This document shows, piece after piece, positions 9,023 through 31,395 of a DNA stretch of 64,000 bases (position 1 is the first letter of the stretch; the number at the start of each line of letters is the position of its first letter). The notes beneath the pieces are model-generated. The model ran no database searches. It was not told where the DNA came from and saw only the letters and a list, made by a program, of their open reading frames with translations. The stretch comes from a virus. Location: the IMG/VR virus record IMGVR_UViG_3300024496_000012. One strand, written 5' to 3'. A program made the position numbers and the translations under genes.

Positions 9023-9320
9023 ACCTTTGTTTAAACCGCCAAGACATCTCGTTAAAGAGTGGCCGGAGGTATTCGAAGACCTTTATATGAATACTATGCC
9101 GGTTGCATATCTAGAAATGATGCACATCGAGTTCCACGATGGACGGATATGGCGTATAGATATAAAAGAACAGCTCAGGGACAGTGATGCCGATTCTATA
9201 GCTTCTCAACTTCTCGAAACCATGCAAGAATATAAAGATGATATCAAGAAGTTAGATTTTAAAATCGATGTCACAAAACTAAAAGAAGATATTAGGAATT
9301 CTACTAAAGATATTTTCTAG
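9015..9320 (+). CDS. Hypothetical protein
   Basis: GTG-start ORF; its 3' end overlaps the convergent ugd gene. Confidence 0.65.
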   Translation: MPKPLFKPPRHLVKEWPEVFEDLYMNTMPVAYLEMMHIEFHDGRIWRIDIKEQLRDSDADSIASQLLETMQEYKDDIKKLDFKIDVTKLKEDIRNSTKDIF

Positions 9321-10527
9321 TATTTCCGTAATGTATCACTGTGTGGGCCGGTGACTCATACGTTCTCCAAGGATCGATAACAATCGATCCTTTTTCTATT
9401 TTACAATAGAGATTTTGATTTTCTTCGAAACCTCTATAGTCATAGGTAATCTTTCTATTATGTGCTAATAGCACAACACCATAACAGCCTTGTATGTCAT
9501 CGCCTGTTAGAGGATCGATGTACGTAGGCTTATGCCCCAGTTCTTCGCAGTAGTGACCAATCAATAAACTATAGCTTCCATCACAATACGGAACATCTGG
9601 CTTATAGGCCTTACCGTGTATAAAGATGCTCATCTTATTTTTTTCAGCATGTCTCACAAGCTCTTGGGCTAGATTTTTAGCCTGTATTTCTCTAGCATTC
9701 ATTATGGCATCAAATAAATCGTATCCTAAATCTAGGTTCTTTGCCATATATCTTAGAGCTATATTATCTCTCGGATGACAGGCACCGCCGTCTCCCATGC
9801 CTGCCTTCATATATTGTGGTCCCATGATACGCATAGTGCTCTTTGCCAATGCGTCAGTTACTACATCTACATTGATATTTCCCTGCTTGACGGCAACATC
9901 TTGTATCATGTTGACTAGGCCAATCTTGGCACTAATAAATGTGTTATAGAATACTTTGATACATTCACATTCATCCCATGTACCGATAACATACCGAGGA
10001 TCATTTTCCATGACTGTTTTGTAAAACTCGACCAACTCTTTTGCATCTCCTGTTTCGGTACCGTCCTCGGTTCCAATCATGACCATTTCAGGATTAACCA
10101 TATCCCATGCTACACTGCCCATAGCGATTAGATATGGGTTATAAACAAACCGTGTATTGGTAATATGTTGGATGAACTCTCTACGTGTGGTGCCCGGAAG
10201 TACCGTAGATATAAGAACCAACAACTGATTTTTATTCATGTACTTGTTGGCTTCTTTAAGACATTCTATAACTGTGTCATATCTAAAATCTTTTGGTTCG
10301 AGATGCGCTGTAGGACTACGGCCATCATAGTCAGGATCATGCGGAGTAGGAACTGCGATAAAAACTATATCTGCATTTTTAACACATTCTTCAATACTAG
10401 GTACTACCTTGATTAACTCACTAGATCTTTCAGATATATCATAGCCAAAAACTGTATAACCTTTTTTGGCAACTTCCTCTGCGCAAGGCAAACCTAACTT
10501 GCCTATACCAATAAAACCAATTTGCAT
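9304..10527 (-). CDS. ugd: UDP-glucose/GDP-mannose dehydrogenase family (NDP-sugar 6-dehydrogenase)
   Basis: Rossmann GFIGIGKLG, FIAVPTP, STVLPGTT, YNP..., E.IKV.YN.F, GMGDGGACHPRD (catalytic Cys) and AYKP. Start moved from 10704 to ATG 10527 (GAGGTG RBS). Confidence 0.9.
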   Translation of the reverse strand: MQIGFIGIGKLGLPCAEEVAKKGYTVFGYDISERSSELIKVVPSIEECVKNADIVFIAVPTPHDPDYDGRSPTAHLEPKDFRYDTVIECLKEANKYMNKNQLLVLISTVLPGTTRREFIQHITNTRFVYNPYLIAMGSVAWDMVNPEMVMIGTEDGTETGDAKELVEFYKTVMENDPRYVIGTWDECECIKVFYNTFISAKIGLVNMIQDVAVKQGNINVDVVTDALAKSTMRIMGPQYMKAGMGDGGACHPRDNIALRYMAKNLDLGYDLFDAIMNAREIQAKNLAQELVRHAEKNKMSIFIHGKAYKPDVPYCDGSYSLLIGHYCEELGHKPTYIDPLTGDDIQGCYGVVLLAHNRKITYDYRGFEENQNLYCKIEKGSIVIDPWRTYESPAHTVIHYGNTRKYL

Positions 10528-10536
10528 TTTCACCTC

Positions 10537-10544
10537 GATAAATA
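10537..10544 (+). promoter_or_regulatory. Late promoter motif (GA)TAAATA for the oxygenase/aminotransferase/amidinotransferase operon
   Basis: TAAATA core in the 48-nt divergent intergenic gap. Confidence 0.55.
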
Positions 10545-10556
10545 ATAGCAGCACAT

Positions 10557-10564
10557 TATTTAGT
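10557..10564 (-). promoter_or_regulatory. Late promoter motif (AC)TAAATA for ugd
   Basis: Minus-strand TAAATA core 29 nt upstream of the ugd ATG. Confidence 0.55.
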
Positions 10565-10575
10565 GGAGTATTTTT

Positions 10576-11079
10576 TTGTATAAGCAAGGTTTGATAGAAC
10601 CGTTTTGGGGTACGCATCATAGATATTTGGATTATCAAAGAGAACCATTTAACTGCTATGAAGACATCCAACTGTGGCGTTCTCAAGGATATTCTCAAAA
10701 TCATTTCACTGGTCTTTTGTATGACATGAAATCAGTCATGCCTACATGGACTGAAAAGTTTTTAACACTATTCGAAGGACAGAATCAAGGCTTGAGTTTC
10801 TACAAGATGGAGACCTGCAATGTACTTCCAACACATAAAGATACCTATAGCCTATACAAAAAAATATTCAACATAACAGATAATAACTCAATATGGCGAG
10901 CAATAATTTTCTTAGAGGACTGGAAACCAGGCCATGTATTTGAGATTGAAGGTGATCCTATTACCAAATGGAAAGCAGGAGAATATGTCTTATGGCAATA
11001 CGATGCAGCACATATGGCTGCTAATCTCGGATTAGAACCTCGATACACAGCACAGATAACATTCACTCATGTTCAATAA
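10576..11079 (+). CDS. 2OG-Fe(II) oxygenase / cupin-fold hydroxylase
   Basis: LPTHKD (HxD), distal AHMAAN (H) and PRYTAQIT (RxT) of a DSBH dioxygenase; TTG start with GGAG RBS. Confidence 0.75.
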   Translation: MYKQGLIEPFWGTHHRYLDYQREPFNCYEDIQLWRSQGYSQNHFTGLLYDMKSVMPTWTEKFLTLFEGQNQGLSFYKMETCNVLPTHKDTYSLYKKIFNITDNNSIWRAIIFLEDWKPGHVFEIEGDPITKWKAGEYVLWQYDAAHMAANLGLEPRYTAQITFTHVQ

Positions 11080-11659
11080 GATCGCAGACTTTGAAAACGC
11101 TTTATCGGAGTTTACTGGTGCTCCGTTTGTAATCACTACTGATTGCTGTACACATGCTATCGAACTATGCTTTAGATATAAAAAAGTAAAAACGACCGAG
11201 TTTACCTGTTTTACATATCTCTCTATACCTATGACCATGAAAAAACTTAATATAGAGTATAAACAGATTCCAGAAAAATGGGCAGGCGAATATAGATTTT
11301 ATGGTACAGACATATGGGATAGTGCCAGAAGGTTGCAACCCGGAATGTACATGCCTGGTATGATGCAATGCCTTAGTTTTGGTTACTCTAAACCTTTAGA
11401 CATCGGCAGAGGCGGAGCGATATTATTAGACAACTATGATGATTATAAGTCATTGTCTATGATGAGATATGATGGGAGAGATTTATCTATCTCTCCATGG
11501 CAGTCACAAAAAGAGTTTACTTTAGGATTTCATTATAAACTCAATCCAGAAGAATGCATAAAAGGTATTGAAAAACTGGAAGAATATAAGAATAATAAAA
11601 ACTTCAACATAGCATTTGTAGAATATCCAGATTGCAGAGATATAAAAATAAATGATTAG
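11069..11659 (+). CDS. Short DegT/DnrJ/EryC1/StrS-family PLP aminotransferase
   Basis: FE..LSEFTG...CCTHAIEL, WDSA, CLSF.YSK.L.IG.GGAIL (PLP lysine) and GFHYKL; only 196 aa. Confidence 0.75.
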   Translation: MFNKIADFENALSEFTGAPFVITTDCCTHAIELCFRYKKVKTTEFTCFTYLSIPMTMKKLNIEYKQIPEKWAGEYRFYGTDIWDSARRLQPGMYMPGMMQCLSFGYSKPLDIGRGGAILLDNYDDYKSLSMMRYDGRDLSISPWQSQKEFTLGFHYKLNPEECIKGIEKLEEYKNNKNFNIAFVEYPDCRDIKIND

Positions 11660-12560
11660 ATCTTACAACGAATGGGACCCGTTACAGGAAGTAATACTTG
11701 GAACGGCAACAAATGCACACTGGCCAGTAAGTTGTCCTGCATTTAGAAATCTAGAAAATATCACTGCATGGAAAGAAACTCCCGTTCCGTCTGGTTGTGT
11801 AGAACAAAGAATAGTAGACGAAACTAACGAAGATCTAGAAAATTTTAAACAAACATTAGAGTCTCTTTCTGTGAAAGTACATAGGCCCAAGGATTTAGAT
11901 TTCCAATCATTTGACGGTATGTATAACTATTGCCCAAGAGACAGAGTGTTAATAATAGGCGATAAAGCAATAGATGCTCCAATGTTATATCCCACGAGAA
12001 CAAAAGAAATAGATGCCATTGATCATTTGTTAGATAACGTTTTACATGTAGATGATGATACCGCAAAGTTTGATGCAGCTAACATATGTAGACTAAACGA
12101 TGATATTTTATATCTAATCAGTGAAAGCGGTAATAGAAATGGTGCTGTATGGTTAGAAAAAATATTTCCAACTCATAGAATACATATACTAGATAACATA
12201 TACAGCGGAGTACACATCGACAGTACCATATCTCCTATAAGAGAAGGACTAGTCGTCCTTAATGCTGATCGAATAAATGAAAGTAATCTTCCGTCAGTTT
12301 TTAAATCCTGGGATAAAATATGGGTCAGCGGAGATGATATAGTTCCGCAAGGATTTGAAGGTTATCCTTACGCCAGCAAATACATAGCTTTAAATTTTTT
12401 AACTATAAATCCTTATTTGATAATCTGCGATCCTAAACAGAGTTATCTCAGAAGACTGCTTTCTAAATATAATGTTGAAAGCATAGGTGTCGAACTTAGA
12501 CACAGTCGTACACTAGGGGGAGGTCATCATTGTGTTACACTTGATTTGGTCCGAGGATGA
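11652..12560 (+). CDS. L-arginine-dependent amidinotransferase (AGAT / StrB1-like pentein)
   Basis: SYNEWDPLQEVILG, NYCPRD, FDAANI, HIDSTI and RTLGGG.HCVTLDL.R with catalytic Asp/His/Cys. Confidence 0.9.
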   Translation: MIRSYNEWDPLQEVILGTATNAHWPVSCPAFRNLENITAWKETPVPSGCVEQRIVDETNEDLENFKQTLESLSVKVHRPKDLDFQSFDGMYNYCPRDRVLIIGDKAIDAPMLYPTRTKEIDAIDHLLDNVLHVDDDTAKFDAANICRLNDDILYLISESGNRNGAVWLEKIFPTHRIHILDNIYSGVHIDSTISPIREGLVVLNADRINESNLPSVFKSWDKIWVSGDDIVPQGFEGYPYASKYIALNFLTINPYLIICDPKQSYLRRLLSKYNVESIGVELRHSRTLGGGHHCVTLDLVRG

Positions 12561-13746
12561 TTCCTACAAACACGATATCTTTTGGAATAACATTCCTGGA
12601 TACCAAAAAAGATTAGGATATCTAAAAGAAAATCTCGTAGACGAATCTTTTCTTAGAAACATAAAGAATCCTTATTTTATATACACAGGCAATGGAAGGA
12701 TCAAATCTTTAGAATCTATTATATTAGATAAAGATACTGTCGATAAACTTAACTCAACAGAACTGTATTTTTATCTATACGAACCTAGTTGTTTTAGGAT
12801 AGGGGAACATAATAGAAGTTTTTATAGCGAAATGCGATCAGACGAAAATATCAAAGATATCATAGTCGATGAGCTAGAAAGTATAAAAATATTTGTTCAT
12901 CAAAATAATCTAAAAAGATTTCGTGTATTCACATCCGATTATAGGATACAGATACTACAAGACAACTATCCAGATATAAAAATAGATTGTTTAGATTTAT
13001 TCCTAAGAGAAATAGCAAAATGCTATAAATCATTTCCAAAATATTTTGTAAAACATAAAATAGAAAAAAAGTTTTGGTGTGGTAACTGGCGATACACTAC
13101 CCACAGACATCTAATGACCAGTTATCTTTCTCAACTCAATGGAACTTATACATGGAATCTAAAATGTTCTTACAACGAACTTAAAAATAATAACTGGTTT
13201 GATCTAGATCAGTTTCAAAAAGAAAGACCACAACAACATGAACAACTCAGAAAAGGTGTAGATTTTCTAGAAAAAAATATACTGGCTATAGATCAAAAAA
13301 TAGATTCAGTTAATGTTGTCAACTCCGATCAAGTATACATACCTGGACACAAGGCACCCGAATGGACTCAAGAGTTTTTAAAGAGCTACGAATCTAACTT
13401 CTGTGCTATCATCAATGAAACAAGATATGCACAACCGTTCGGTTACTTCAGCGAAAAAACTTTAACAGCTATTGGTAGCAGTATGCCAATAATACTAGTA
13501 GCTCCGCCACGCAGTTTAGAATATCTCAAAACTTTTGGATTTACAACATTCGGTAAATGGTGGAATGAAAGTTATGATCAAGAAGAGGATCATTATAAAA
13601 GAATGATTATGATTTTTGATATTATAGATTCTATCAACTCTAAATCTCTAGAAGAGTTACAGAAAATATATCAAGACATGCGACCTGTATTAAAGCACAA
13701 TAGAAGAATACTAGACACTATTACCTTTAACGATAAAATTGTATAG
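12532..13746 (+). CDS. Putative glycosyltransferase, GT10-like C-terminal motif (paralog 1)
   Basis: IINETRY..YFSEKTLTAI..PIILVAPP.SL.YLK..GF.TF..WNESYD.E.D..KR motif shared with ORFs 15834 and 17751; resembles the FENS...YITEK donor-binding motif of GT10. Confidence 0.5.
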   Translation: MLHLIWSEDDSYKHDIFWNNIPGYQKRLGYLKENLVDESFLRNIKNPYFIYTGNGRIKSLESIILDKDTVDKLNSTELYFYLYEPSCFRIGEHNRSFYSEMRSDENIKDIIVDELESIKIFVHQNNLKRFRVFTSDYRIQILQDNYPDIKIDCLDLFLREIAKCYKSFPKYFVKHKIEKKFWCGNWRYTTHRHLMTSYLSQLNGTYTWNLKCSYNELKNNNWFDLDQFQKERPQQHEQLRKGVDFLEKNILAIDQKIDSVNVVNSDQVYIPGHKAPEWTQEFLKSYESNFCAIINETRYAQPFGYFSEKTLTAIGSSMPIILVAPPRSLEYLKTFGFTTFGKWWNESYDQEEDHYKRMIMIFDIIDSINSKSLEELQKIYQDMRPVLKHNRRILDTITFNDKIV

Positions 13747-15832
13747 GTTGTTCTATTACAATCTGATTAGAAACTTCTGTAGAGTAATCAGAGTAATCGC
13801 TCCAGTCCCCGGTACCGGTCCAGGAATGATCAAAGGACCAATCGATATTGTTATTGAGATGTTTTTCTTCTTCGATCATAGCTACATATTCCGGCCAGTC
13901 TCTACCATCTATACCCCACCAAGGTTTAGCCAAACGCCTTGCTCTCACAGCAGCATTGCTGGTCATTCGACTAAAGTCTTGTGCAAAGAACGGTCCTTGT
14001 CTTTCTGGCTCAGCATATTCGTTGTATTCATAGGTTTGTTTAAACTTCCATTTGAAATCAGCTGACCATTTTCCGTCTTCTGTTATTTCAAACTTAAAGT
14101 CAGCATGATACGTACCTGAGCCATACTGATTACCAAACTCAGCAGAATCTAGATCGGGACTAAATCGAAGATTAAATCTATAACCACCCTTTGCCCTCCA
14201 TAGAGTTCTTAGCAATGGCCAGATCTCATTAACCAGACCATCGGCATAAGGATTGATGGTTGTTTTTATGATGTTATAATCAAACTGCTCATAACTGACT
14301 TCTCTGTCCTGCTCATTATCATAGATAATATCATAATGATATTTCTTAAGATTTGGCCTTACAGGATAGGTGATTTTCTTGCTGCCAATGATTTGATCTA
14401 GATATATGCTAATACATTTTACACGCATCAAAGTGTGTGTTCCGCCTAATCTAAAATCTTTTGTGATCCAATGTCCGAGATATTTGTGATAAGAAAGATT
14501 AAACTTATCAGGATTTTGACCTGTAATAGTTTCAGGACCCTGCCCAAATCCTATACCTGTACTCATGTTCCTAATATTCATGTCTCTGTTACGCCAGAGA
14601 AACGTCATAGTGTCTGCATAGTCTTGATATGACTCTGTCGGAAATGCCACTATCCAGTTAGTGGCTGCTTCAATACCAACAGTCTTTCCGTCTCTAAAGT
14701 TTTGTTCCATTTCTGCAATAGTGACACCTTTGGCCATATCATCTAGAACTTTTTGACTGCCAGATTCACAACCATAGTTTAGATAAACACAGCCGCTATC
14801 AGCTAGATCCTTCATATACTCTAGATCCATACGACCGTCACATCTCGCATATCCTGTCCACTTAATGTCAAGTCCTTTAGCAATAACTCCTTTAGCGAAC
14901 GCCCGAAGCTCTTTTAAGTTGCCGTTGACAAGGCTGTCAATAAACCAAAAGACTCTAGTTCCTTTTTCGTGATAGAGGTAATCTACTTCTTCAAGAGCAT
15001 CAATGGCCATGCGTTGGCGATATTTCCAAAAATGTGTTTCTTCACAGAATGTGCATTTAGCTATACAACCTCGACTAAGTTCTGTAGTAACGCCATTTGG
15101 AATCCTATAGAGATTAAAATCAATATTAGAATAATCTGGCATAGGAAACTTGTTAAGATTTAATCGTTGATCTTCGGGCTGAACTATGTACTGTTGTTCA
15201 GGATGTTCGATGCTATGTTCTATCTCGTCTAGTATTTTTAATATAGCTTCTTCGCCTTCGCCGTTTACTACATAATCATAGTATTCTTCTTTGACAAAAA
15301 ATCCCTTCTGTACATTAGGACCACCAACTGCGATCTTAACTGTTGGTAACTTCTTTTTTAACTCTTGAATCATCCATTTAGTAGGTTCTTCATTCATCTG
15401 GTAGACGCTGAAGCCAACAAGAGTAGGATTGTAATCAACTATTTCATCTAATACAGTTTTAAGATAAGGTTCTAGATATTGATGTATCTCTTGGTAGTTA
15501 TCGCCGCACCAGCGCCATATGGTTGTAGGATCCCAAAGTTTATAATCTAGTTTAGATTTGATTTCTTTTTCATAGAATCTAAAAGATTTAATGTTGGCAT
15601 CTAATACCTTGCTTGCATAACCTGCTTGCCGAGAAACTGCCGATAGCCTGCACAGATTAAAAGGAGGAAACTCTGCTGCCCACTGTGGTAGCAGTACTAA
15701 CATCAGCTTAGTCTTGCGCTCAGCCTGCTGTATAACAACCGTAGTCGTATTTCTTTGTTCTACAGGTTTAGCATATTGAGCTATAGCCTTGAGAGTCGTT
15801 ATATGTTTATCATTGCCTTCTTCGTAGGGCAT
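13727..15832 (-). CDS. B12-binding-domain radical SAM protein (class B methyltransferase-like)
   Basis: N-terminal B12 domain (PP..L..L; LVGFSV; AVGGP.V; VVNGEGE), SRGCIAKCTFC, FIDSL.N and GCESGSQKVLD.M.KG. Confidence 0.88.
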   Translation of the reverse strand: MPYEEGNDKHITTLKAIAQYAKPVEQRNTTTVVIQQAERKTKLMLVLLPQWAAEFPPFNLCRLSAVSRQAGYASKVLDANIKSFRFYEKEIKSKLDYKLWDPTTIWRWCGDNYQEIHQYLEPYLKTVLDEIVDYNPTLVGFSVYQMNEEPTKWMIQELKKKLPTVKIAVGGPNVQKGFFVKEEYYDYVVNGEGEEAILKILDEIEHSIEHPEQQYIVQPEDQRLNLNKFPMPDYSNIDFNLYRIPNGVTTELSRGCIAKCTFCEETHFWKYRQRMAIDALEEVDYLYHEKGTRVFWFIDSLVNGNLKELRAFAKGVIAKGLDIKWTGYARCDGRMDLEYMKDLADSGCVYLNYGCESGSQKVLDDMAKGVTIAEMEQNFRDGKTVGIEAATNWIVAFPTESYQDYADTMTFLWRNRDMNIRNMSTGIGFGQGPETITGQNPDKFNLSYHKYLGHWITKDFRLGGTHTLMRVKCISIYLDQIIGSKKITYPVRPNLKKYHYDIIYDNEQDREVSYEQFDYNIIKTTINPYADGLVNEIWPLLRTLWRAKGGYRFNLRFSPDLDSAEFGNQYGSGTYHADFKFEITEDGKWSADFKWKFKQTYEYNEYAEPERQGPFFAQDFSRMTSNAAVRARRLAKPWWGIDGRDWPEYVAMIEEEKHLNNNIDWSFDHSWTGTGDWSDYSDYSTEVSNQIVIEQPIQFYR

Positions 15833-15833
15833 A

Positions 15834-17006: not shown

Positions 17007-17758
17007 AATCGATCATTCGGAGGTTGTCGAAAATGCATATCATCAAAGTTACGCAGAGCTTCCATTTTAGTTTGCTGTACATTTAACCAAGAGAATGTGT
17101 TAATGGACCATTCTTGATCAGGAAATAGTTTACTGAGATATCCAAAATGCTGCTTAGGGCTTGGATGATAGTCTGCACTTTGATGTCCTTCTTTGCTTAT
17201 AGGATGTTGTGGCCAAACACCGTTACATTCTAAAGTTAAAATGTCAGGAAGTATAGCATCTAAGGTATCCTTATAATATTGTCTTAGCTGCGTTAGTTTA
17301 TTTCTTTCTGTTGTTGTCTTGGCCTCTATCGTCAACGGAGACATGTTTAACATATAGTAATCGATTCCCAGATTATCTAAAAGATTTTTACTGAGTGTTA
17401 TCATATTGATATCACGTAACAAATAACCGAAATCATCTGAAAACTTCATCACAAACTGTTCATCGTAATAGTTTTGTGTATAGATATTTCCGGGGGTAAG
17501 CCATGTACCATTAATATACCTATCTTCTCTAGATACTGAACTCCACATTACCATTACGAGATCGTCTTTGTTAAACTTATGTCTCTGATGTGCTTCTGTA
17601 AGCTGGCAAGCTATAAAAAGATTACCGCCACCGCTCTGTGCATAGTTTCTGTATTCAGGTATCTCTCTTCCTATAATGTCTGCCCAAGTCGGCCAGCCAT
17701 AAGCAGTCATACTACATCCAAAAGCAAAAAATCTCTTATACTTTTTAAAATCAATCAT
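17003..17758 (-). CDS. SGNH/GDSL-fold acyltransferase or esterase
   Basis: FAFGCSMT (block I), NYAQSGGGN (block II) and C-terminal DYHPS (block V). Confidence 0.7.
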   Translation of the reverse strand: MIDFKKYKRFFAFGCSMTAYGWPTWADIIGREIPEYRNYAQSGGGNLFIACQLTEAHQRHKFNKDDLVMVMWSSVSREDRYINGTWLTPGNIYTQNYYDEQFVMKFSDDFGYLLRDINMITLSKNLLDNLGIDYYMLNMSPLTIEAKTTTERNKLTQLRQYYKDTLDAILPDILTLECNGVWPQHPISKEGHQSADYHPSPKQHFGYLSKLFPDQEWSINTFSWLNVQQTKMEALRNFDDMHFRQPPNDRL

Positions 17759-21133: not shown

Positions 21134-22490
21134 TACATAACTCCATAAAATCTATAAGCAAAGGAAATGTAGATCTAAAATCTGTTCCTCTGCGCAGATC
21201 GTATTCTTTAAACCAGTTGTAAAAGTCTCTACGACCTTCGTTAATTTTTTCTTCGCTATATTTTGCAGTTTCCATGTAATGGACCACACGCTTAAACTTT
21301 TCTAGTTCATAATCGCTAAACTTAGTACGATCATTATTATCTAGATTATTTTCGATAAACTTTAAATGATTGTACATAAAAGGCATAAACTGATCTTTGG
21401 GCAATATATTCATGTCATATTGTAAAGGTTCTTTTAAGAACGGTGTATCAAATCTAACACGTTGCCATTTATTTTGATCTGTTCCATTATACTTAATGCG
21501 CCATTCAATGATCTTTTCTAACAACGATTGAAAGTTTGTAACTGTTAGTATGTTAAAAGTTATCATGAAAGTGATAGGCAAAGAAGTTCTAGTTAGATAT
21601 TCATTTAGATTTCTTTCCCAAACAGTTAGATCTAGACCAGTACGTATATATTCGGCCTGAGGTCCCCATGTATCAATGCTTGTGAATATTTTAAAATCTT
21701 TGATTTTTTTATTTTCAACTAGGTTGTTAACTTTTTCTATTAAACGATCTATCAAAATAGGTTTGACACCAAAGTTGGTGTTGATGTTTAGTTCCAGATT
21801 AGGCAAAGGATTTTTTTCAAGATCCTCTAACAACCTCCATGTACTCTGCTGTATTAGAGGTTCGCCGCCTGTGATACGCAAGATAGTTAATGTCTTGCGT
21901 ACTTCGGGCCACCAACGCCACCATGCTTCCACATAAGGATTATCCTCTTCTTCATAGATCTTAAACCAATCAATGTCATTTCTATGATTCTTTACCATAG
22001 TATAAGGACCGTGATCTTTGATCTCTTTATAATAACTACTACTGTGTTTAGGATGGCAATACCCGCATTTAAAGTTACATTCGTTGCCAAATGATATTTC
22101 AATATACTGTGGATTTATATTTTGATCCCAATCCCCGTCCTTGATTTGTGCAAATCTTTCGGGCGTGTAGATAGTAGAGTTTCGTTCTTTACGATCACTA
22201 ATATAGTCCTCGCCCATTGCTTCGATATTCCAGCAATAGTTACAACCGCTAGGTTTTCCTCCATTGAGCATTTCAAGACGTTCATGTTTCTTTTGATTTG
22301 TGTTATGCAGAGCACCTGGATCTATAATGATTTCTTCTAAAGAGATCTTGTGTGGCGGCGGATGATAACAACTATGGGTTTCTCCGGTCTGCAAATAGAT
22401 AGTGGTATGGTGCCATTTAGCTAGACAAAAGGTAGGCGATATTTCATTCATTATAGGAATGAATTTTTTAATCCTCGATATGTCGTTCAT
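21123..22490 (-). CDS. Radical SAM protein with N-terminal twitch/SPASM-like domain
   Basis: FCLAKW...GETHSCYHP...GCNYCW, followed by FGNECNFKCGYC, ITGGEPL, NTN and TSIDTWG. Confidence 0.88.
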   Translation of the reverse strand: MNDISRIKKFIPIMNEISPTFCLAKWHHTTIYLQTGETHSCYHPPPHKISLEEIIIDPGALHNTNQKKHERLEMLNGGKPSGCNYCWNIEAMGEDYISDRKERNSTIYTPERFAQIKDGDWDQNINPQYIEISFGNECNFKCGYCHPKHSSSYYKEIKDHGPYTMVKNHRNDIDWFKIYEEEDNPYVEAWWRWWPEVRKTLTILRITGGEPLIQQSTWRLLEDLEKNPLPNLELNINTNFGVKPILIDRLIEKVNNLVENKKIKDFKIFTSIDTWGPQAEYIRTGLDLTVWERNLNEYLTRTSLPITFMITFNILTVTNFQSLLEKIIEWRIKYNGTDQNKWQRVRFDTPFLKEPLQYDMNILPKDQFMPFMYNHLKFIENNLDNNDRTKFSDYELEKFKRVVHYMETAKYSEEKINEGRRDFYNWFKEYDLRRGTDFRSTFPLLIDFMELCSAA

Positions 22491-24081
22491 TGAACTTTTC
22501 CTCTAGCCATGCAAAATCATTTATCTTTTTAAGAGCTTCTATATTATTTCTATTTTCATAACCATAGTCTCGGCCTTGTCTAGCACCGTCTAAAGCATAT
22601 TTGTCTATGGTTTCTGTGCACCATACATCTAATCTCTGTTGTGTTTCTTCGTCAACTTGTCCTGTAATAATCCTGCTCGATAACTTAGAACATTCTCTAA
22701 ATGCCGATTTCCAACTATTGAATGGATCTGTATTAAACTTGTTGATGTTTGATACTTCTGGCATGGCTCTAAACCTACCAGAAATACTAGTGGTCATATC
22801 TGGATTGTCAACCTTCATATCTAGTGTTAACTTCGTCGGGAGGAGTTTGACACCACCGTTTCCGTATTCAAGACCGTTGACTTCGTTACGACTACGCCAT
22901 ACAAAAACAATATCTTGATCTACTTTTAAGGGTCGATGATCAAAGTTAAAAGATTCTAATACCTCTGCATCAGCATCAACTACCCAAAACATAGGTGTAG
23001 AAACCTGCTTCGCAGCTTCTATGTGTGCGTTGTGTATCCCTTTAACACCGTCAATACGTTTTATATCTCTCTTAACTTTTTCCTGCAGCTTCTGATAATG
23101 TTTATCGGCATACGGTTCGTGATATGAGATAAAAACTATATCAAAGTCTTTAGGTTGACTGGCAACTATGTCTACTTCTTTCTTTGTATGAAAGAATCGT
23201 TTTTCAATCTCTCGACGTGCATACACATTCCTTTTAGGAAACAAACATATTCCATCAAAGTTATTTCCGTTTTTGAAAATATGTACTATCGTTTGATTAT
23301 ACTTGGGTACCTGATAGCTAAAATCAAAGTCGTTAGGTTTGACATCATTCCATACAGCATAAAACATGTCTGTCTCAGAAGTTTTTAATGCATTCTGATA
23401 ATCTTCGTAACTTGAAATATTAAAAACTTCAAAAGACCTCGGAGTGCTGGCTAAGATGTCTACTTCTTTTTTATTTGTGAAAAATCTATTATCAAACTCA
23501 CGCTTGGTTATCTTTTCATTCCTAGAAAATAAACATATGCCGTCATAATACTCTCCGTTCTTAAAAACATGAGTAATGTTTCTGTGAAAGCTATCGTAAG
23601 CAGGAACATAATAATCAAAATCAAAATCTACATCGATGTCATTCCAAACCGCCCAAAACATTTCAAGATTTGAATGTTCGACAGCATACAGATAATCATC
23701 GTATGACTTAATATAGAAAACTTCAAAAGGAATAGGATTACTGGCCACAATATCTATTTCTTTTTTATTCATAAAGAATCTGTTTTTAAACTCTCTATTA
23801 GAAATGGATATTGTTTTGTTTATAAGACATATACCATCATAGGTATTTTTATTTTTAAAAACATGGGTGTATTCTTCATCCCATTTTGTTGCTCGATAAC
23901 TGTTCAGATTAAAATCAGAAAGTATAAGATCATCCCATATTAACCAAAACATCTTAGTAAAAGATTTTTTCTGTATCTGATCTATAGACATATTTTTGTC
24001 AAGGCGTTGAGCATTAGGATATCTCCTCTTTAGAGTTTCCCATTGTTCACCCAGACCACCAAAGAAAAATATATCATACAT
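22468..24081 (-). CDS. GT-A-like glycosyltransferase with three N-terminal ~90-aa tandem repeats
   Basis: C-terminal domain DIVFISY.EP...GVKGIHNAH...FWVVDAD (DxD)...YGNGGVKL...F.SWKSAFRE, preceded by repeats FW.VW.D...HVFKN...DGICL...RFF..KKE.DI.AS.P. Confidence 0.6.
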   Translation of the reverse strand: MYDIFFFGGLGEQWETLKRRYPNAQRLDKNMSIDQIQKKSFTKMFWLIWDDLILSDFNLNSYRATKWDEEYTHVFKNKNTYDGICLINKTISISNREFKNRFFMNKKEIDIVASNPIPFEVFYIKSYDDYLYAVEHSNLEMFWAVWNDIDVDFDFDYYVPAYDSFHRNITHVFKNGEYYDGICLFSRNEKITKREFDNRFFTNKKEVDILASTPRSFEVFNISSYEDYQNALKTSETDMFYAVWNDVKPNDFDFSYQVPKYNQTIVHIFKNGNNFDGICLFPKRNVYARREIEKRFFHTKKEVDIVASQPKDFDIVFISYHEPYADKHYQKLQEKVKRDIKRIDGVKGIHNAHIEAAKQVSTPMFWVVDADAEVLESFNFDHRPLKVDQDIVFVWRSRNEVNGLEYGNGGVKLLPTKLTLDMKVDNPDMTTSISGRFRAMPEVSNINKFNTDPFNSWKSAFRECSKLSSRIITGQVDEETQQRLDVWCTETIDKYALDGARQGRDYGYENRNNIEALKKINDFAWLEEKFNERHIED

Positions 24082-24985
24082 TTTCGTTCATCTGATAATA
24101 TGTTAGACCCAGATTAATAGTTTCGTCATATAGATCTAGCGTATATTTGCTCTGCGCCGCATCAAGCCAAGGCCAATCGAGACCAAGTTCATGCTTGATT
24201 TGTTCTCCTAAATCTTTGATAGCTTCTACGAGACCTTCACCATTTACTTCTTCATATGGTCGGCCATACTGATTCCATATTCCTCTTAGTATTTCAAAAT
24301 CTCTAACATCTACATAGTTCCACTGAGTGCAGTTGGTCATCCATGTTCCCAATCTAGCTCCATAGACTGCATAGATACCATTTTCTTCATGTGCTCCTAC
24401 GGTTGACCACATACGGAGTCTATGTATGTTATGCCACCATATCTGCTGCTTGATTTCCTGTGGAGGAACTTTTACTCCATCGAGCAAGGTCATCTTGACA
24501 CCTTCACGAAATCCTGCTCGCCAGGCTTGAAAAGGTGAACCTGTAATAACGCTTTCAGAATACACTCTAGGAAAATTACGATATCCATCTTCCCAACAAA
24601 AATCTACCTGTGCTCGTTCGCTTTCTGCGTTTTCATGAGTACGCATGTTTAGAACAAAATCTTTACGCCAGATTTTTAAACCACCATTGCCATATCGTAG
24701 TCCATTGATAGAGTTCCTTCCGCACCAGCCGTAGACCTGTATCTTAGGATCATCCATCTTAAGATCGAGATTGAAGAAGTCAGGATTTACGATGTTATCT
24801 GCATCTACAGTTATAAACCAATCAGTTTCTGATAACTCTGCTGCGGCTTTATGTGCATGATCACTGCCTTTCACACCATGTATTCTTTTTGCCCAGGGCA
24901 CTTTATTACACAAATCTGCATAATGAAGATCTGCATTCGGTTCGTCATAACTTAGAAACACTACGTCAAACTCAATGACTTTCAT
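24074..24985 (-). CDS. GT-A-like glycosyltransferase (paralog of the 22468 C-terminal domain)
   Basis: FDVVFLSYDEP, GVKGSDHAH, FITVDAD (DxD), YGNGGLKIW and F.AWRAGFRE. Confidence 0.6.
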   Translation of the reverse strand: MKVIEFDVVFLSYDEPNADLHYADLCNKVPWAKRIHGVKGSDHAHKAAAELSETDWFITVDADNIVNPDFFNLDLKMDDPKIQVYGWCGRNSINGLRYGNGGLKIWRKDFVLNMRTHENAESERAQVDFCWEDGYRNFPRVYSESVITGSPFQAWRAGFREGVKMTLLDGVKVPPQEIKQQIWWHNIHRLRMWSTVGAHEENGIYAVYGARLGTWMTNCTQWNYVDVRDFEILRGIWNQYGRPYEEVNGEGLVEAIKDLGEQIKHELGLDWPWLDAAQSKYTLDLYDETINLGLTYYQMNENV

Positions 24986-25602
24986 AATATCTCCAATACA
25001 TAACTCTTAAATATTCTTCTAGTATACACACTGAACTTTTCAGGAAGATTAATATTTTCAAATATCTTTGCCTGACCTACTAGTTCATCTAATCTCACAG
25101 ACAGCATCTTGATTAATACATTAGGATCGTTATAATCAGTCAATAAGAAATTCATCAATGTGTCTCCGCCCCAATGTACTGAACGCTTTGGTCGTGGTTG
25201 GAACTCTTCAGCCTGTATATACGTTCCATTTAAATCTTCAGTCAACTCAATCTTTAATGTTTTAGAAGTAGTATCATAGGTAATATAGATATCGGGTATT
25301 TCTACACCAGACCATCTTTTATCTATTACTCTATGGACAACATCGTCTATCTTGAAAACAGATTTCATTTCTGTTATTTCAAGACTATCACCCATCGGAT
25401 CAACAAAACAAGAATGTATGCTAATAGTACCCTTTAAGATTAACTCAGCGATTTCTGTGTCAACAAATACTTTAAACTTCTCATCTGGAAATGCAGACTT
25501 AGGCCCAACGCTGATAACTTTGCCAGTATCCTTGTCATAGACTGCGACATATCTTACTTCAGGAACTTCGTATTCTGAAAGCCATTTATCAAAATCGATC
25601 AT
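24982..25602 (-). CDS. Hypothetical protein
   Basis: ORF coupled by ATGA overlaps; start moved from 25611 to 25602. Confidence 0.7.
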   Translation of the reverse strand: MIDFDKWLSEYEVPEVRYVAVYDKDTGKVISVGPKSAFPDEKFKVFVDTEIAELILKGTISIHSCFVDPMGDSLEITEMKSVFKIDDVVHRVIDKRWSGVEIPDIYITYDTTSKTLKIELTEDLNGTYIQAEEFQPRPKRSVHWGGDTLMNFLLTDYNDPNVLIKMLSVRLDELVGQAKIFENINLPEKFSVYTRRIFKSYVLEIL

Positions 25603-26438
25603 TTCTTCCATGCTATTTCCTCAAGTATATTGATAAGCTCAGGAGTAATAGTATCCTTTTCAACATAGTGAACTATATCGTGCTGTTGATAGTTTCCTAT
25701 TTTTAACTGTCCTTTTCTATTAAGATAAAACCCTACATGGTCTGTTACTGTGTCAGCAGGCCAAGGCCAGTTTTGTACCATCGGTTTCATATGCACTACT
25801 CTAGGAAACTCTAGGTCATAGGCGATCTCATCCGCAATATCTAGTATCTTAGCTGCCAATGAGAAAGCTTCATCTGTTCCTAAAACTTTAGGTTTTAGTT
25901 TTGATAGATATACATTTGAAAATTGTAAAGGATTTTTTATGATATGTCTACCTAAAGAAAAGAATTCTTTAGCCATCTCACTATCACGTTTAAAAAAAGT
26001 ATAAAAGCTATAAAGATTTGGCAGTTCGTTTTTTGTAAAAGTTCTTCTATACTCATCAGAAGTTATTTTTTCACCTCTATAAGTAAACCCTTTATTGGCT
26101 ACATATAACTCAGTGTTTTCTAAAAAATAATCAATCCAATGACTGTAATCTCTTAAAAATAACATATCAGCGTCTAGACAAACCGTTGCGTCAAAAGGAC
26201 TTAATCGATCCATCCAAGAACGCCCATCCCAAAATGTTTCTTCATTCCATTCAATAATATGATCAAAAACCCATTTAGATTCGAATCTATCGAGATACAT
26301 CTTGTCATCGATCACCAGTGCTACTTTATCATACCCTTCTTTTTGAGTGTTCTTTATACTCAGGGCAAGAGCATATGCCATCTGAGAATAATCTGCTTTA
26401 TCTGACGTTGACACGATTATAAGATAACCAAAGTTCAT
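25599..26438 (-). CDS. GT8-like / nucleotide-diphospho-sugar transferase
   Basis: GYLII..MAYALALSIK; LSPFD.TVCLDAD (DxD); GTDEAF..A. Confidence 0.6.
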   Translation of the reverse strand: MNFGYLIIVSTSDKADYSQMAYALALSIKNTQKEGYDKVALVIDDKMYLDRFESKWVFDHIIEWNEETFWDGRSWMDRLSPFDATVCLDADMLFLRDYSHWIDYFLENTELYVANKGFTYRGEKITSDEYRRTFTKNELPNLYSFYTFFKRDSEMAKEFFSLGRHIIKNPLQFSNVYLSKLKPKVLGTDEAFSLAAKILDIADEIAYDLEFPRVVHMKPMVQNWPWPADTVTDHVGFYLNRKGQLKIGNYQQHDIVHYVEKDTITPELINILEEIAWKK

Positions 26439-27298
26439 ATCAACCTCATAAGATTTTCTGCATTTCTAACTATACTTTTTTTATTCATTACATGCACATC
26501 TGTATCTTTTATAGTCGCAGGGCAATAGTTAGCATCTACTTTACCGGACAATAAAAAAGTTAGTTTTCCGTTATCATCTACAGAATGTAGTATATCCTTA
26601 TCTATGGTCGTTAGTACCGGAGGCAATGACATTACCGGTTCCTCAAAGCCATACAATAAATGATTTGCTACACTAAAGCTGATATCATTTCTGTATTGCC
26701 TCGGATCAAATCTAAAAAGATCTCCATAATAAGAATAATGAGTCCTAACAAAATCTACTGTTTCAAAAAACATTTTTGAGACATCGTCTTTAGTAAACAT
26801 TACTGTTGTTGCCCAGAACAGTTTTACTCCTGTATCAGAAATGTAGTTGTCATGATATCCGTTCCTAGAAGGAACAACCATATCATTCATAGAATCAGAA
26901 ACTAATATAGATTCGTCTACATCCCAATATTCAGACAATCTATCAGAAAAAATTAAAAAATCGCTGTCTATTAATAATGTTCTATCGTAGGGAGTTAGAT
27001 CCCAAGCACTTGCTCTGTTAGCATTAACAAACGGAACTAATACATCAGAAAATTTTCCATCATGTAATCGACGTTGATTATCAGTTAAAGGTTTTTCAAC
27101 GATAATAAACGCTTCAAAGACTTCTTTGGCTTTTTCTACTATTTCCGATTTTGCCATCCATTCTAATGTAGAAGCATCTGTCACTAGTGTTGCAGGAACA
27201 TTAAGATGTTTACGTGCTAGACCCCCGGCTATCACTGCCATAAGGGCATAGTCTATTTCTCTATTGTTATGAGCAAATATTAGAATACCGTTGGTCAT
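26435..27298 (-). CDS. GT8-like / nucleotide-diphospho-sugar transferase (paralog)
   Basis: GILIFA...Y..MA; LTPYDRTLLIDSD (DxD); RNDISFSVA; HVMNK. Confidence 0.6.
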   Translation of the reverse strand: MTNGILIFAHNNREIDYALMAVIAGGLARKHLNVPATLVTDASTLEWMAKSEIVEKAKEVFEAFIIVEKPLTDNQRRLHDGKFSDVLVPFVNANRASAWDLTPYDRTLLIDSDFLIFSDRLSEYWDVDESILVSDSMNDMVVPSRNGYHDNYISDTGVKLFWATTVMFTKDDVSKMFFETVDFVRTHYSYYGDLFRFDPRQYRNDISFSVANHLLYGFEEPVMSLPPVLTTIDKDILHSVDDNGKLTFLLSGKVDANYCPATIKDTDVHVMNKKSIVRNAENLMRLI

Positions 27299-27645
27299 AG
27301 GTCTAATAACTTTTCTACAGATCTACTCTTTCTAAGATTTTGATATTGCTCGTGATATTCGTAGACCGATGTGAAATATCTATCTAATATTTCATTCATA
27401 AAAATATTAAGGTCGGGGATTAAGACAGGATTTCCGTTAGCGTCGATCAACGGAACATTTTGCGTTCTTTCTTGGTCGATCAAAAACTTAACAAATGCTA
27501 TGAGTGTTTGATCAATCTTAAAGATTCCACCAGATGCGCCATAGGTGAGTTTGGCTTCGATCTTTTCTTTGAGGGTTTTTCTTTGGATAGAAAAGCTCTG
27601 ACGATAGTTCGAAAAGTCAAGAGCCTGCTTGAGTTGTTCTTCCAT
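27295..27645 (-). CDS. Hypothetical protein, first gene of the minus-strand modification operon
   Basis: AGGAG RBS; preceded by a late promoter and hairpin. Confidence 0.75.
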   Translation of the reverse strand: MEEQLKQALDFSNYRQSFSIQRKTLKEKIEAKLTYGASGGIFKIDQTLIAFVKFLIDQERTQNVPLIDANGNPVLIPDLNIFMNEILDRYFTSVYEYHEQYQNLRKSRSVEKLLDL

Positions 27646-27651
27646 TGTTTC

Positions 27652-27697: not shown

Positions 27698-27701
27698 AAA
27701 T

Positions 27702-31370: not shown

Positions 31371-31395
31371 TGGGCTGCTCCACCTTTATTCGTTA

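Follow-up and report, generated by a model that had tools for sequence, protein, structure and literature searches.

A gene cluster predicted to make a late, heavily tailored glycan adjoins the tail-fibre module of an uncultured jumbo T4-like phage

Introduction

What would a phage build with a long run of sugar enzymes placed beside its tail-fibre genes, and to what would it attach the product? The question is raised by positions 9304-27645 of a 64-kb stretch (hereafter the window) from the genome of an uncultured jumbo T4-like phage. Here 18 open reading frames lie back to back and 16 of them encode enzymes, in agreement with a first-pass annotation that had listed about 16 contiguous enzymes of these kinds. 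Most likely, these 16 soluble enzymes build a heavily decorated sugar chain. We give about an even chance to the fuller reading that they form a phage-encoded cytoplasmic pathway for a late, heavily tailored glycan, whose likeliest acceptor, as we infer, is one of the proteins in this phage's own tail-fibre module.

Results

Seven assignments are firm: the dehydrogenase, the amidinotransferase, the half-size DegT protein, two N-twitch radical SAM enzymes, the B12 radical SAM enzyme and the GT-B fold of three paralogs. The GT10, GT8, GT-A, SGNH and 2OG labels stand at the level of motifs and weak profile matches, so the family names given at first pass hold firmly for the former group and provisionally for the latter. 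Next to the fibre genes, and in the order of its strand, the cluster begins with the following genes; ORF numbers are those of the cultured Ralstonia phage RsoM2USA.

27295-27645, minus strand: u116, 116 aa, no assigned family, first gene of the head
26435-27298, minus strand: GT8-like transferase b, D-S-D motif (34% identical to ORF353 over its full length)
25599-26438, minus strand: GT8/GT77-like nucleotide-sugar transferase a, L-D-x-D motif, phrog_1903 (37% identical to ORF352)
24982-25611, minus strand: u209, 209 aa, no assigned family, member of the conserved head (ORF351 is a partial homolog)
24074-24985, minus strand: GT-A-type transferase, D61-A-D63 motif, weak GT2 match at E 0.044 (43% identical to ORF350)
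22468-24081, minus strand: GT-A-type transferase with a 300-aa N-terminal extension, residues 312-503 being 36% identical to the protein at 24074

Family searches gave no match for u116 or u209, and u116 is conserved in genomes G003 and G005 and as RsoM2USA ORF354. The two GT8/GT77-like labels are based on the DxD motif and on Atlas neighbours bearing PF03407/PF01501 (at 0.95-0.96 for the protein at 25599), and the two GT-A labels on a DADN motif together with the GT2 match. Atlas neighbours of the protein at 24074 are viral 'GT2-like' clusters; relatives of the protein at 22468 reach 1350-1650 aa.

The same strand continues through the radical SAM, SGNH and GT10-like genes.

21123-22490, minus strand: second N-twitch radical SAM enzyme (NF033640, 2e-94, above cutoff)
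20186-21133, minus strand: SGNH-like protein 2, assigned at motif level (G-E-S-W..G, P-G-N-C-N and H-H-P-N..H invariant in 5 homologs)
19006-20196, minus strand: radical SAM enzyme with an N-terminal twitch/SPASM-type cluster domain (NF033640, 1e-117, above cutoff)
17751-19031, minus strand: GT-B glycosyltransferase, GT10-like paralog 3 (blastp to its paralogs, 6e-9 and 7e-6)
17003-17758, minus strand: SGNH-like esterase/acyltransferase 1 (G14-C-S16, G45-N46 and D196-x-H198 invariant in 25 homologs)
15834-17006, minus strand: GT-B glycosyltransferase, GT10-like paralog 2 (AF2 model, pLDDT 93.5)
13727-15832, minus strand: B12-binding radical SAM enzyme (Pfam B12-binding and Radical_SAM; CIAKCTFC motif)

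NF033640 is the NCBIfam family of N-terminal-twitch radical SAM proteins. In the member at 19006, which has 3874 metagenomic homologs, residues 7-71 form the SPASM domain and the Radical_SAM domain follows; the member at 21123 is its paralog (E 1e-20) and is 36% identical to RsoM2USA ORF349. The B12 enzyme comes closest to NCBIfam models of C- and P-methyltransferases, with scores under their cutoffs, and its 277-aa C-terminal domain (pLDDT 84.6, top structural Z 4.2) has a fold that matches nothing known. The three GT10-like proteins, at 12532, 15834 and 17751, are mutually paralogous. The model of the protein at 15834 gave GT-B structural matches at Z 9.4-10.5, all tied, and its invariant residues are R183, E277, T278, E294 and K295; the protein at 17751 has the invariant columns of A1 as well. 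The GT10 label itself is based on an ET...SEK motif and on a Pfam GT10 match of 2.4e-4 in one relative. For SGNH protein 1, one relative matched Lipase_GDSL_2 at 7e-3, and a PDB sequence search with the protein itself returned no match.

The remaining genes form two divergent units around a short control region.

12532-13746, plus strand: GT-B glycosyltransferase, GT10-like paralog 1 (E 2e-15 to the paralog at 15834)
11652-12560, plus strand: StrB1/AGAT-type amidinotransferase (E 3e-88 to 1BWD (StrB1), 6e-52 to AGAT)
11069-11659, plus strand: half-size DegT-family PLP protein, 196 aa (Pfam DegT, 1e-11)
10576-11079, plus strand: small 2OG/Fe(II)-type oxygenase, 167 aa, HxD..H..R motif
10529-10575, between the strands: 47-nt divergent control region with a facing TAAATA pair at 10539-10544 (plus) and 10557-10562 (minus)
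9304-10528, minus strand: NDP-sugar 6-dehydrogenase, 408 aa (Pfam UDPG_MGDP_dh_N and central domain)

The dehydrogenase truly starts at 10528 (MQIGFIGIGKLG), not 10704. It scores 1e-17 with the Pfam UDPG/GDP-Man dehydrogenase family, 1e-98 with phrog_9148 and 4e-45 with TIGR03026, carries the catalytic-Cys motif GGACHPRD and occurs in 42 of 69 related loci. The oxygenase keeps H87-x-D89...H146...R156 across 9 homologs; its relatives show weak Pfam Asp_Arg_Hydrox/PhyH matches (Asp_Arg_Hydrox at 4.7e-4 in one). The length of the half-size DegT protein is constant in 30 loci. It retains the Lys of SF..K and the D-A-A motif, and aligns with sugar aminotransferases in two blocks, but has neither their C-terminal domain nor some 70 of their internal residues. 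The amidinotransferase, scored by its family profile against the StrB1 structure (PDB 1BWD), has invariant GG.HC.T, H-x-D and CPRD motifs. The GT10-like protein at 12532 is the fourth gene of this amidino module, and the order DegT protein, amidinotransferase, 2OG oxygenase, GT10-like protein is repeated in related loci.

The structural genes and regulatory features that bear on linkage and timing are these.

29586-37680, minus strand: four tail-fibre genes (PHROG tail-fibre families) with a common N-terminal domain of about 190 aa
28672-29586 and 27702-28655, minus strand: the fibS pair, small Ser/Thr-rich fibre-type proteins, paralogs at 38% identity
27646-27701, minus strand: intergenic stem-loop whose loop contains TAAATA 27672-27677 and whose 3' arm contains the ribosome-binding site of the gene at 27295
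61318-62163: gp55-like late sigma gene

Minus-strand genes run unbroken from 61245 to 13727, as expected from the earlier claim that the largest unit continues the tail-fibre operon strand. The fibS genes, the last structural genes ahead of the cluster, lie beyond the 9304-27645 boundary; their products contain 21-24% Ser+Thr, as do fibres, and are candidate acceptors. A fibS homolog immediately precedes the cluster in every compared genome and is fused to a fibre N-terminal domain in RsoM2USA ORF355. The order wedge, giant gene, g37684, fibre, fibS, (u116), GT8 b, GT8 a, GT-A, N-twitch radical SAM is the same in five near-complete genomes, whose wedge proteins are only 38-41% identical, and in RsoM2USA. 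This linkage to the fibre genes across distant phages is stronger than could be seen at first pass; it may nevertheless reflect simple inheritance within one phage lineage instead of functional coupling.

TAAATA is rare, with 20 copies in the window, and 13 of the 20 precede a start on their own strand by no more than 70 nt (binomial p ~1.5e-16). The genes behind it include the baseplate wedge, a fibre gene and all three cluster units, which start, as had been claimed, at such motifs (sites at 10539 on the plus strand and at 10557 and 27672 on the minus strand). The stem-loop ahead of the head (-23 kcal/mol, z -7.4) recurs with changed stem bases in loci L003 and L027, and in genomes G001-G005, too, a TAAATA stands in the interval from fibS to the cluster head. 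The late-type promoter context thus stands; late timing is what the promoter-like motif and the gp55-like sigma gene suggest.

The cluster is phage-restricted and was found on at least 69 IMG/VR contigs, the B12 enzyme gene being present in at least 69 IMG/VR loci. Its content is hypervariable: 41 loci hold 32 distinct gene sets, and the mean Jaccard index of gene content is 0.60 among loci whose B12 enzymes are 85-95% identical. Such rapid turnover is typical of surface-glycan loci. The accessory genes of relatives include further sugar enzymes (epimerase/dehydratase, RmlC, carbamoyltransferase).

Discussion

The enzyme families support the proposed glycan and sugar-tailoring enzymology. In the pathway that we favour, the dehydrogenase would supply a uronic acid sugar nucleotide, and the four-gene amidino module would convert a sugar hydroxyl to a guanidino group and then transfer that sugar: the oxygenase would form a ketone, the half-size DegT protein an amine, the StrB1-type enzyme would amidinate the amine with arginine as donor, and the GT10-like transferase at 12532 would attach the product. 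The GT8-like, GT-A and GT10-like transferases would assemble the chain, the SGNH proteins would put O-acyl groups on or take them off, the B12 enzyme would C-methylate, and the N-twitch enzymes may oxidise, epimerise or deoxygenate sugar carbons. Initiation of the chain may fall to the conserved head (u116, both GT8-like transferases, u209, GT-A and N-twitch radical SAM), and its diversification to the distal, rapidly changing genes.

The main rival places the glycan on the host envelope (LPS core, O-antigen or capsule), where its effect would be to exclude superinfecting phages, promote release or alter recognition by other phages or grazers. The 'LPS' or capsular-polysaccharide clusters of jumbo cyanophages have been read so in print: Iyer et al. 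2021 take this view of the polymorphic multi-transferase sugar clusters in the P-SSM2 type, and the S-SCSM2R authors interpret 22 cell-wall genes likewise; GT8 enzymes include LPS-core transferases of the cytoplasmic face, and rapid gene turnover is also compatible with a cell-surface arms race. However, the Pfam/PHROG matches of the window proteins and 20 accessory-family representatives include no initiating phosphoglycosyl transferase, flippase, polymerase or exporter, no cluster protein has a hydrophobic or membrane segment, and no lysogeny genes were seen within the window. Given late-type promoters and continuity with the fibre operon, a lytic cycle would hardly last long enough for a new surface layer to form, and we regard this rival as rather unlikely. 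Glycosylation of the phage's own DNA bases against restriction is far less credible still. The top VIA match of the GT-B model at 15834 is T4 beta-glucosyltransferase (Z 10.5), but many unrelated GT-B enzymes score about as high (Z 9.2-9.9). Diverse phage DNA glycans are known (Pyle et al.). No known modification of DNA is as elaborate as one tailored by 16 enzymes with uronic, guanidino, O-acyl and C-methyl groups, and the cluster lacks a hydroxymethylase, a TET-type oxygenase and a DNA kinase. The 7-deazaguanine gene set just upstream (QueE, 4075-4929) lies on the opposite strand as a separate unit without the TAAATA pattern of the structural genes, and the cluster accompanies fibre genes, not replication genes.

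Two further readings, both improbable in our view, concern small molecules and peptides. A free, aminoglycoside-like guanidino-glycoside acting on the host or on competitors would fit the StrB1-type amidinotransferase (E 3e-88), and aminoglycoside pathways include counterparts of the DegT protein, twitch radical SAM (BtrN type), B12 radical SAM (GenK type) and 2OG oxygenase; 'antibiotic synthesis genes' is the name given to the trio by the S-SCSM2R authors. Against this, a cyclitol synthase, an exporter and a self-resistance gene are all missing from the Pfam/PHROG results, seven transferases imply a chain far longer than known aminoglycosides, the hypervariable content resembles glycan loci and is unlike a fixed metabolite pathway, and the position within the fibre operon is conserved. 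Alternatively, the N-twitch and B12 enzymes could act on a protein or peptide, such as a fibre, in a RiPP-like manner, leaving sugars to the transferases. Among NCBIfam models, the B12 enzyme scores best against one for RiPP C-methyltransferases (2e-30, below cutoff), and its C-terminal domain matches no known fold. In relatives, as many as five N-twitch enzymes are encoded in tandem together with a further radical SAM protein. On eight related contigs the B12 enzyme adjoins ribonucleotide reductase and no transferase is encoded closer than 10 kb; this enzyme may thus not need a glycan. Conversely, neither a gene for a precursor peptide nor a domain for peptide recognition was found, the closest relatives of the N-twitch family (MoaA, viperin) act on nucleotides, and the radical SAM block sits amid sugar enzymes in nearly all loci.

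The first-pass name 'undescribed system' was too strong, because jumbo-cyanophage sugar clusters have been published, as host-surface modification (PMC7824862), and the amidino trio is annotated in the cultured phage S-SCSM2R (PMC12801897). In support of the virion glycan, the related phage XacN1 carries genes for GT9, carbamoyltransferase and GT enzymes where our cluster lies, and at least two protein bands of its virions, given without protein names, are periodic acid-Schiff positive (PMC5852040); what XacN1 has in common with our cluster is limited to the site and one carbamoyltransferase homolog, without the core genes. In S-SCSM2R, ORF305 (195 aa) is 40% identical to the half-size DegT protein and ORF308, an annotated 2OG oxygenase, is 28% identical to ours, and purified virions of that phage contained an amidinotransferase related to ours together with a 2OG oxygenase (PMC12801897).

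Results

The window derives from an uncultured jumbo myophage. Its baseplate wedge protein, encoded on the minus strand at 51937-55347, shares 35-38% identity with the wedges of Sinorhizobium phage Phosso, Agrobacterium phage Atu_ph07 and Salicola phage SCTP-2. Megablast of the 18-kb cluster against 50,697 phage records returned no match, and at the level of DNA none of the cultured phages is closely related. The region 9304-27645 is filled by 18 contiguous open reading frames (ORFs, named here by their first coordinate) in three units, and none of the 18 proteins contains a hydrophobic segment of membrane-helix strength. No cluster gene for a lipid carrier or for export was detected.

Units of the cluster and neighbouring features
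9304 (-): unit 1, dehydrogenase alone
10576-13746 (+): unit 2, four genes (2OG oxygenase 10576, half-size DegT-like protein 11069, amidinotransferase 11652, GT10-like 12532)
27645 down to 13727 (-): unit 3, thirteen genes (27295; GT8b 26435; GT8a 25599; 24982; GT-A 24074 and 22468; N-twitch radical SAM 21123 and 19006; SGNH-like 20186 and 17003; GT10-like 17751 and 15834; B12 radical SAM enzyme 13727)
10539 (+), 10557 (-), 27672 (-): TAAATA motifs of the cluster
27640-27705 (-): stem-loop separating fibS from the first gene of the cluster
27702-28655 and 28672-29586: fibS, paralogous small Ser/Thr-rich fibre-type proteins
38352-51929 (-): 4525-aa ORF (giant protein) between baseplate wedge and fibres
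61318-62163: gp55-like late sigma gene

Homologs of the giant protein lie at the same place in five near-complete related genomes (G001-G005), in Atu_ph07 (gp180), in XacN1 (ORF325) and in RsoM2USA (ORF361). Upstream of the cluster, an early-looking stretch (257-4929, plus strand) encodes a QueE-like radical SAM protein (phrog_2076, 6e-52), a phosphoribosyltransferase, a cupin ("cysteine dioxygenase" PHROG) and a dehydrogenase; these genes seem to form part of a distinct DNA-modification set of the 7-deazaguanine type.

The hexamer TAAATA occurs just 20 times in the 64 kb, counting both strands, and 13 of these copies precede a start codon on their own strand by at most 70 nt (binomial p ~1.5e-16). 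It is found upstream of the baseplate wedge, of one fibre gene and of one structural gene, and a site precedes each of the three cluster units, in agreement with the first-pass annotation, which had these units opening at late-promoter motifs. Its further claim that the largest unit prolongs the fibre operon strand was likewise borne out, the same strand being used from 61245 through the baseplate, giant-protein and fibre genes. Taken together with the gp55-like sigma gene, the motif pattern supports T4-type late transcription as the probable mode of expression. The motif recurs between fibS and the cluster head in all five related genomes. In the window, the stem-loop at this position (-23 kcal/mol, z -7.4) holds TAAATA in its loop and the ribosome-binding site in its 3' arm, and it is also present, with altered stem bases, in the two closest relatives (L003:120-195 and L027:177-252; z -3.4 and -6.3). 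Such an arrangement would fit a switch between read-through and internal-promoter transcripts. An Rfam search of the window identified no RNA family; the wcaG motif, which borders a sugar cluster of cyanophage S-SCSM2R, was not found either.

The five related genomes (210-364 kb; wedge 38-41% identical to that of the window) all share one order: wedge, giant protein, a homolog of the gene between giant protein and fibre (37684), fibre, fibS, sometimes the 27295 protein, GT8b, GT8a, GT-A and four or five N-twitch enzymes, followed by variable distal genes, among them the B12 enzyme. The same order is seen in the cultured phage RsoM2USA (MG752970, ORF347-355, all annotated as hypothetical), where wedge, giant protein and fibre/fibS are followed by 27295, GT8b, GT8a, 24982, GT-A, an N-twitch radical SAM enzyme and GT-A homologs (34-48% identical). 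RsoM2USA contains only this seven-gene head (ORF354-348); the dehydrogenase, the amidino module, the B12 enzyme and the GT10-like and SGNH genes are missing from this site. Its ORF355 fuses the fibS domain to a fibre N-terminal domain, so fibS is part of the fibre. ORF356 and ORF361, neighbours of the cluster head, are confirmed virion proteins according to the RsoM2USA paper, and since the phage is cultured, the head module is experimentally accessible. XacN1, a sister of RsoM2USA, carries at the same site a GT9 gene, a carbamoyltransferase homologous to that of related loci and another transferase; at least two protein bands of its virions are Schiff-stained (PMC5852040).

Searching with the B12 enzyme, we recovered 69 IMG/VR contigs (51-78% identity), on which the other families were present to differing extents: GT10-like on 58, dehydrogenase on 42, SGNH on 41, GT-A on 38, N-twitch on ~37 and the amidino genes on ~30. 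Relatives additionally carry epimerase/dehydratases, RmlC, a carbamoyltransferase, a TPP enzyme, more 2OG oxygenases, another radical SAM protein and GT-A-like giants of 1350-1650 aa. Cluster content is modular with fast turnover, with 32 distinct gene sets in the 41 fully covered loci and a mean Jaccard index of gene content that is already 0.60 at 85-95% B12-enzyme identity. Among 185,579 bacterial and archaeal genomes, full-length B12-enzyme homologs were found on four contigs of metagenome-assembled genomes only, and we therefore treat the system as phage-restricted. Three of the four hold further cluster genes (N-twitch enzymes, or the half-size DegT, amidinotransferase and 2OG oxygenase) and are most likely mis-binned phage, and the remaining one is just a short fragment. 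The remaining prokaryotic matches cover the generic core alone (22-31% identity), and no bacterial gene context in this genome set pointed to a function for the enzyme.

The dehydrogenase matches PF03721 (NAD-binding, 1e-17), PF00984 (central, 3e-16) and phrog_9148 (1e-98), and it contains the catalytic Cys for two-step oxidation to an acid (GGACHPRD at residue 248 of the 408-aa form). With both domains and this Cys, it belongs to the UDP-glucose/GDP-mannose dehydrogenase family; its score against TIGR03026 is under the model cutoff and does not distinguish the sugar nucleotide. Its true start is at 10528; read from there, the protein has a Rossmann N-terminus, and the seeming overlap with 10576 disappears. 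In two relatives (L018:7571-9943 and L065:7547-9919), the dehydrogenase lies within a ~790-aa ORF, suggesting fusion to a second domain, possibly GT10-like.

In the amidino module of unit 2, the amidinotransferase family profile matches StrB1 (PDB 1BWD) at E 3e-88 over residues 3-321 and AGAT at ~1e-52. The full-length match, together with the invariant C294 in GG.HC.T, H188-x-D190 and C94-P-R-D, places it in the StrB1/AGAT family. The neighbouring half-size DegT retains the PLP lysine (K108 in S-F-x-x-K) and D84-A-A, invariant in 13 homologs, and matches the Pfam model at 1e-11. It falls short of the two-domain, ~370-residue form of the DegT/DnrJ/EryC1/StrS family, being 196 aa in 30 of 30 loci and 195 aa in S-SCSM2R, and aligns to solved enzymes solely at ~36-103 and ~170-260, so that ~70 internal residues and the entire C-terminal domain are missing; we therefore file it as a DegT-derived protein of putative activity. 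Because this length is kept in the 30 loci and S-SCSM2R, we regard it as a genuine miniature rather than the remnant of a damaged gene. A DegT gene split or frameshifted between 10576 and 11069 was also considered and rejected, as both ORF lengths are kept in ~30 loci and S-SCSM2R. The 2OG oxygenase is labelled by its conserved HxD..H..R motif and weak profile matches.

The transferases 12532, 15834 and 17751 are paralogs. Modelled with 32 homologs, 15834 adopts a GT-B fold of two Rossmann-like halves (AF2 pLDDT 93.5), and structure searches gave GT-B matches at Z 9.4-10.5, including FucT 5zoi, 8d0o and 9s6a. With Foldseek and VIA, no single CAZy family could be assigned to this model, and GT10 was not separated from other GT-B families. 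The family retains E277-T...S-E294-K295, corresponding to the GT10 motif F-E-N...T-E-K; one of 31 members matches PF00852, weakly (2.4e-4), and hhalign aligned the motif with that of an S-SCSM2R protein annotated GT10, but at E 0.012 and a probability of 4%. As the structure ties many GT-B families, the label is based on the motif, the weak Pfam match and the hhalign result, and we call these proteins GT10-like, not GT10. PDB sequence-profile searches with the GT10-like, SGNH, GT-A and GT8-like families yielded nothing usable. The 17003 family shows the SGNH blocks G-C-S16, G45-N46 and D196-Y-H198, with block V one residue short of D-x-x-H, the 20186 family shows G-E-S, G-N-C-N and H-P-N..H, and just one relative matches Lipase_GDSL_2, weakly (7e-3). 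The GT-A pair is labelled by a DxD-type motif, a weak GT2 match and viral language-model neighbours. GT8a and GT8b contain DxD and match no Pfam or PDB sequence; 12-62% of the members of their Atlas feature neighbours (0.95-0.96) carry PF03407 or PF01501, and one relative matches Mannosyl_trans3, weakly (1.2e-3); we call the two proteins GT8/GT77-like. Searches gave no family assignment for 24982 or 27295.

The B12 enzyme combines PF02310 (4e-11) and then PF04055 (1e-15) with C256-x3-C260-x2-C263, as in class B radical SAM enzymes. In NCBIfam it comes closest to models of C- and P-methyltransferases, staying under the cutoff of each, and since no equivalog is reached, the reaction type is only inferred. 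The conserved C-terminal domain (residues 425-701, 277 aa; 13730-14560, minus strand; pLDDT 84.6) has no structural relative by Foldseek (E > 0.2) or VIA (best Z 4.2) and may be the substrate-binding part. The two N-twitch enzymes score 393.6 and 317.2 bits against NCBIfam NF033640 (cutoff 170; model positions 1-398), a family in which we found no experimentally tested member; a literature search for twitch radical SAM enzymes in phages revealed nothing specific. Elsewhere, tandem arrays of four or five N-twitch paralogs and one more radical SAM gene lie directly upstream of the B12 enzyme (L012, L014, L015, L020, L024, L041, L064 and others), giving up to seven consecutive radical SAM genes. 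In Atu_ph07 (L156, NC_042013, record 116908-123646), the syntenic site downstream of fibre gene gp176 holds three radical SAM genes among hypotheticals; we rejected them as cluster relatives, finding no detectable relation to the families here.

Discussion

We propose that the cluster encodes soluble enzymes for nucleotide-sugar synthesis, glycosyl transfer and tailoring that together form a self-contained set and would decorate a part of the virion, with fibS or the fibres as the likeliest acceptor. Judged from the genes, we give this an even chance, on the grounds that the set is soluble, lies in the fibre operon behind late-type promoters, has no detected lipid-carrier or export genes and varies as surface-glycan loci do. 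The main rival, that the sugar cluster alters the host surface, has a precedent as the published reading for jumbo cyanophages; set against the same features, it seems to us unlikely. The pathway might instead release a free guanidino-glycoside. The module shares with the streptidine branch of streptomycin biosynthesis (StsC aminotransferase, then StrB1, to which the amidinotransferase is clearly homologous) the logic of ketone to amine to guanidine, and the authors describing S-SCSM2R read its corresponding three genes as antibiotic synthesis (PMC12801897). The module differs from that branch in lacking a cyclitol synthase or kinase, in its half-size aminotransferase and in having an oxygenase in place of the dehydrogenase. 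It also has its own transferase, which makes a glycan-borne sugar the more likely substrate. Neither in the window cluster nor in 20 representatives of accessory families of related loci did we detect the hallmarks of aminoglycoside clusters (2-deoxy-scyllo-inosose or inositol-phosphate synthase, resistance or export), and we regard a free product as improbable.

To our knowledge, radical SAM enzymes acting on sugars to make the proposed fibre glycan would represent chemistry unprecedented in glycan pathways; that their chemistry is directed at protein has, in our judgement, a slim chance. On eight IMG/VR contigs (L045-L051 and L058), the B12 enzyme (53-54% identical) directly follows the genes for the large and small subunits of ribonucleotide reductase and is followed by a small gene without assignment and two 2OG oxygenases, with no transferase family within 10 kb; these contigs fit none of the readings well, virion glycan and rivals alike. 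For DNA glycosylation, the 15834 model scores Z 10.5 against T4 beta-glucosyltransferase, next to 9.9 against a chlorovirus transferase and 9.4 against alpha-1,3-fucosyltransferases, and no enzyme making hydroxymethyl- or hydroxy-pyrimidines appeared in the Pfam, PHROG and NCBIfam results for the 18 genes and their flanks; we consider this reading very improbable.

Extending the virion-decoration reading, we tentatively suggest, with less confidence than in decoration itself, that T4-like jumbo phages of Gram-negative and cyanobacterial hosts coat their own fibre-tip proteins with a cationic guanidino, C-methylated and O-acylated glycan made partly by radical SAM enzymes, the fast-evolving distal genes providing a second, non-protein layer of host range or shielding coupled to the fibres. 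Should the fibres carry the product, a widespread group of aquatic and soil jumbo phages would depend for receptor binding or shielding on a phage-made sugar coat as well, fibre protein sequence alone would be insufficient and the prediction of host range from genomes would change. Of interest to enzymology are the N-twitch radical SAM enzymes, whose family counts thousands of members in metagenomes but has no reaction assigned to it, the half-size DegT, the B12 radical SAM enzyme with its C-terminal domain of no recognised fold and the compact, putative four-gene route to a guanidino sugar. Direct testing is possible, since parts of the system are present in cultured phages: the head in RsoM2USA, the amidino module in S-SCSM2R and, at the corresponding site, transferases in XacN1.

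Among known systems, the "LPS" or capsular-polysaccharide clusters of jumbo T4-like cyanophages, such as the 15-gene cluster of P-SSM2, are likewise large, combine several transferase families with nucleotide-sugar enzymes and are polymorphic between related phages, and their product, as here, is not known experimentally. The present cluster differs in its seat in the fibre operon behind late-type motifs, and the B12 radical SAM enzyme, N-twitch arrays, GT10-like paralogs, SGNH proteins and guanidino module are absent from the description of P-SSM2-type clusters by Iyer, Anantharaman, Krishnan, Burroughs and Aravind (2021; PMC7824862, section 3.4.10). By tblastn, five core proteins (GT8b, the B12 enzyme, one GT10-like paralog, one N-twitch enzyme and one GT-A protein) matched no cyanophage; among cultured phages as a whole, the GT10-like query matched nothing and the B12 enzyme had a single weak, partial match. 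The amidinotransferase was the sole protein matching a cyanophage, S-SCSM2R (PQ898602), whose ORF301-310 encode orthologs of three module proteins, namely a 195-aa DegT-like protein (40% identical), a 164-aa 2OG oxygenase (28%) and an amidinotransferase (38%), among transferases and one radical SAM protein. S-SCSM2R has no B12 enzyme, N-twitch array or GT10-like family, and its module is not beside fibre genes; one related amidinotransferase and one 2OG oxygenase were present in its purified virions (PMC12801897). A second sugar cluster of this phage (L137, record 190687-203351) directly follows the baseplate genes, with an annotated wcaG RNA motif ahead, and includes GT10, GT11, GT1, GT2, UGDH, epimerases and an NAD-synthase-like amidotransferase. 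We found nothing specific in the literature on glycosylated cyanophage virions.

Virus-encoded transferases glycosylate the chlorovirus Vp54 protein and the mimivirus fibrils. In mycobacteriophages, too, phage-encoded transferases are credited with virion glycosylation (Freeman et al. 2023, as cited in PMC12619734). These systems and XacN1 likewise place transferase genes beside structural genes and use cytoplasmic, self-contained machinery, but they show glycans, whereas the present cluster is known from genes alone. We know of no radical SAM or amidino chemistry in any of the four. The first-pass annotation called this a candidate undescribed system; phage sugar clusters and virion glycosylation were already known. 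Three features stand as new, in that we did not find them described in the literature searched: the enzyme combination, the fact that it keeps its place behind the fibre module in a broad range of phages, and its occurrence in cultured phages with all genes annotated as hypothetical.
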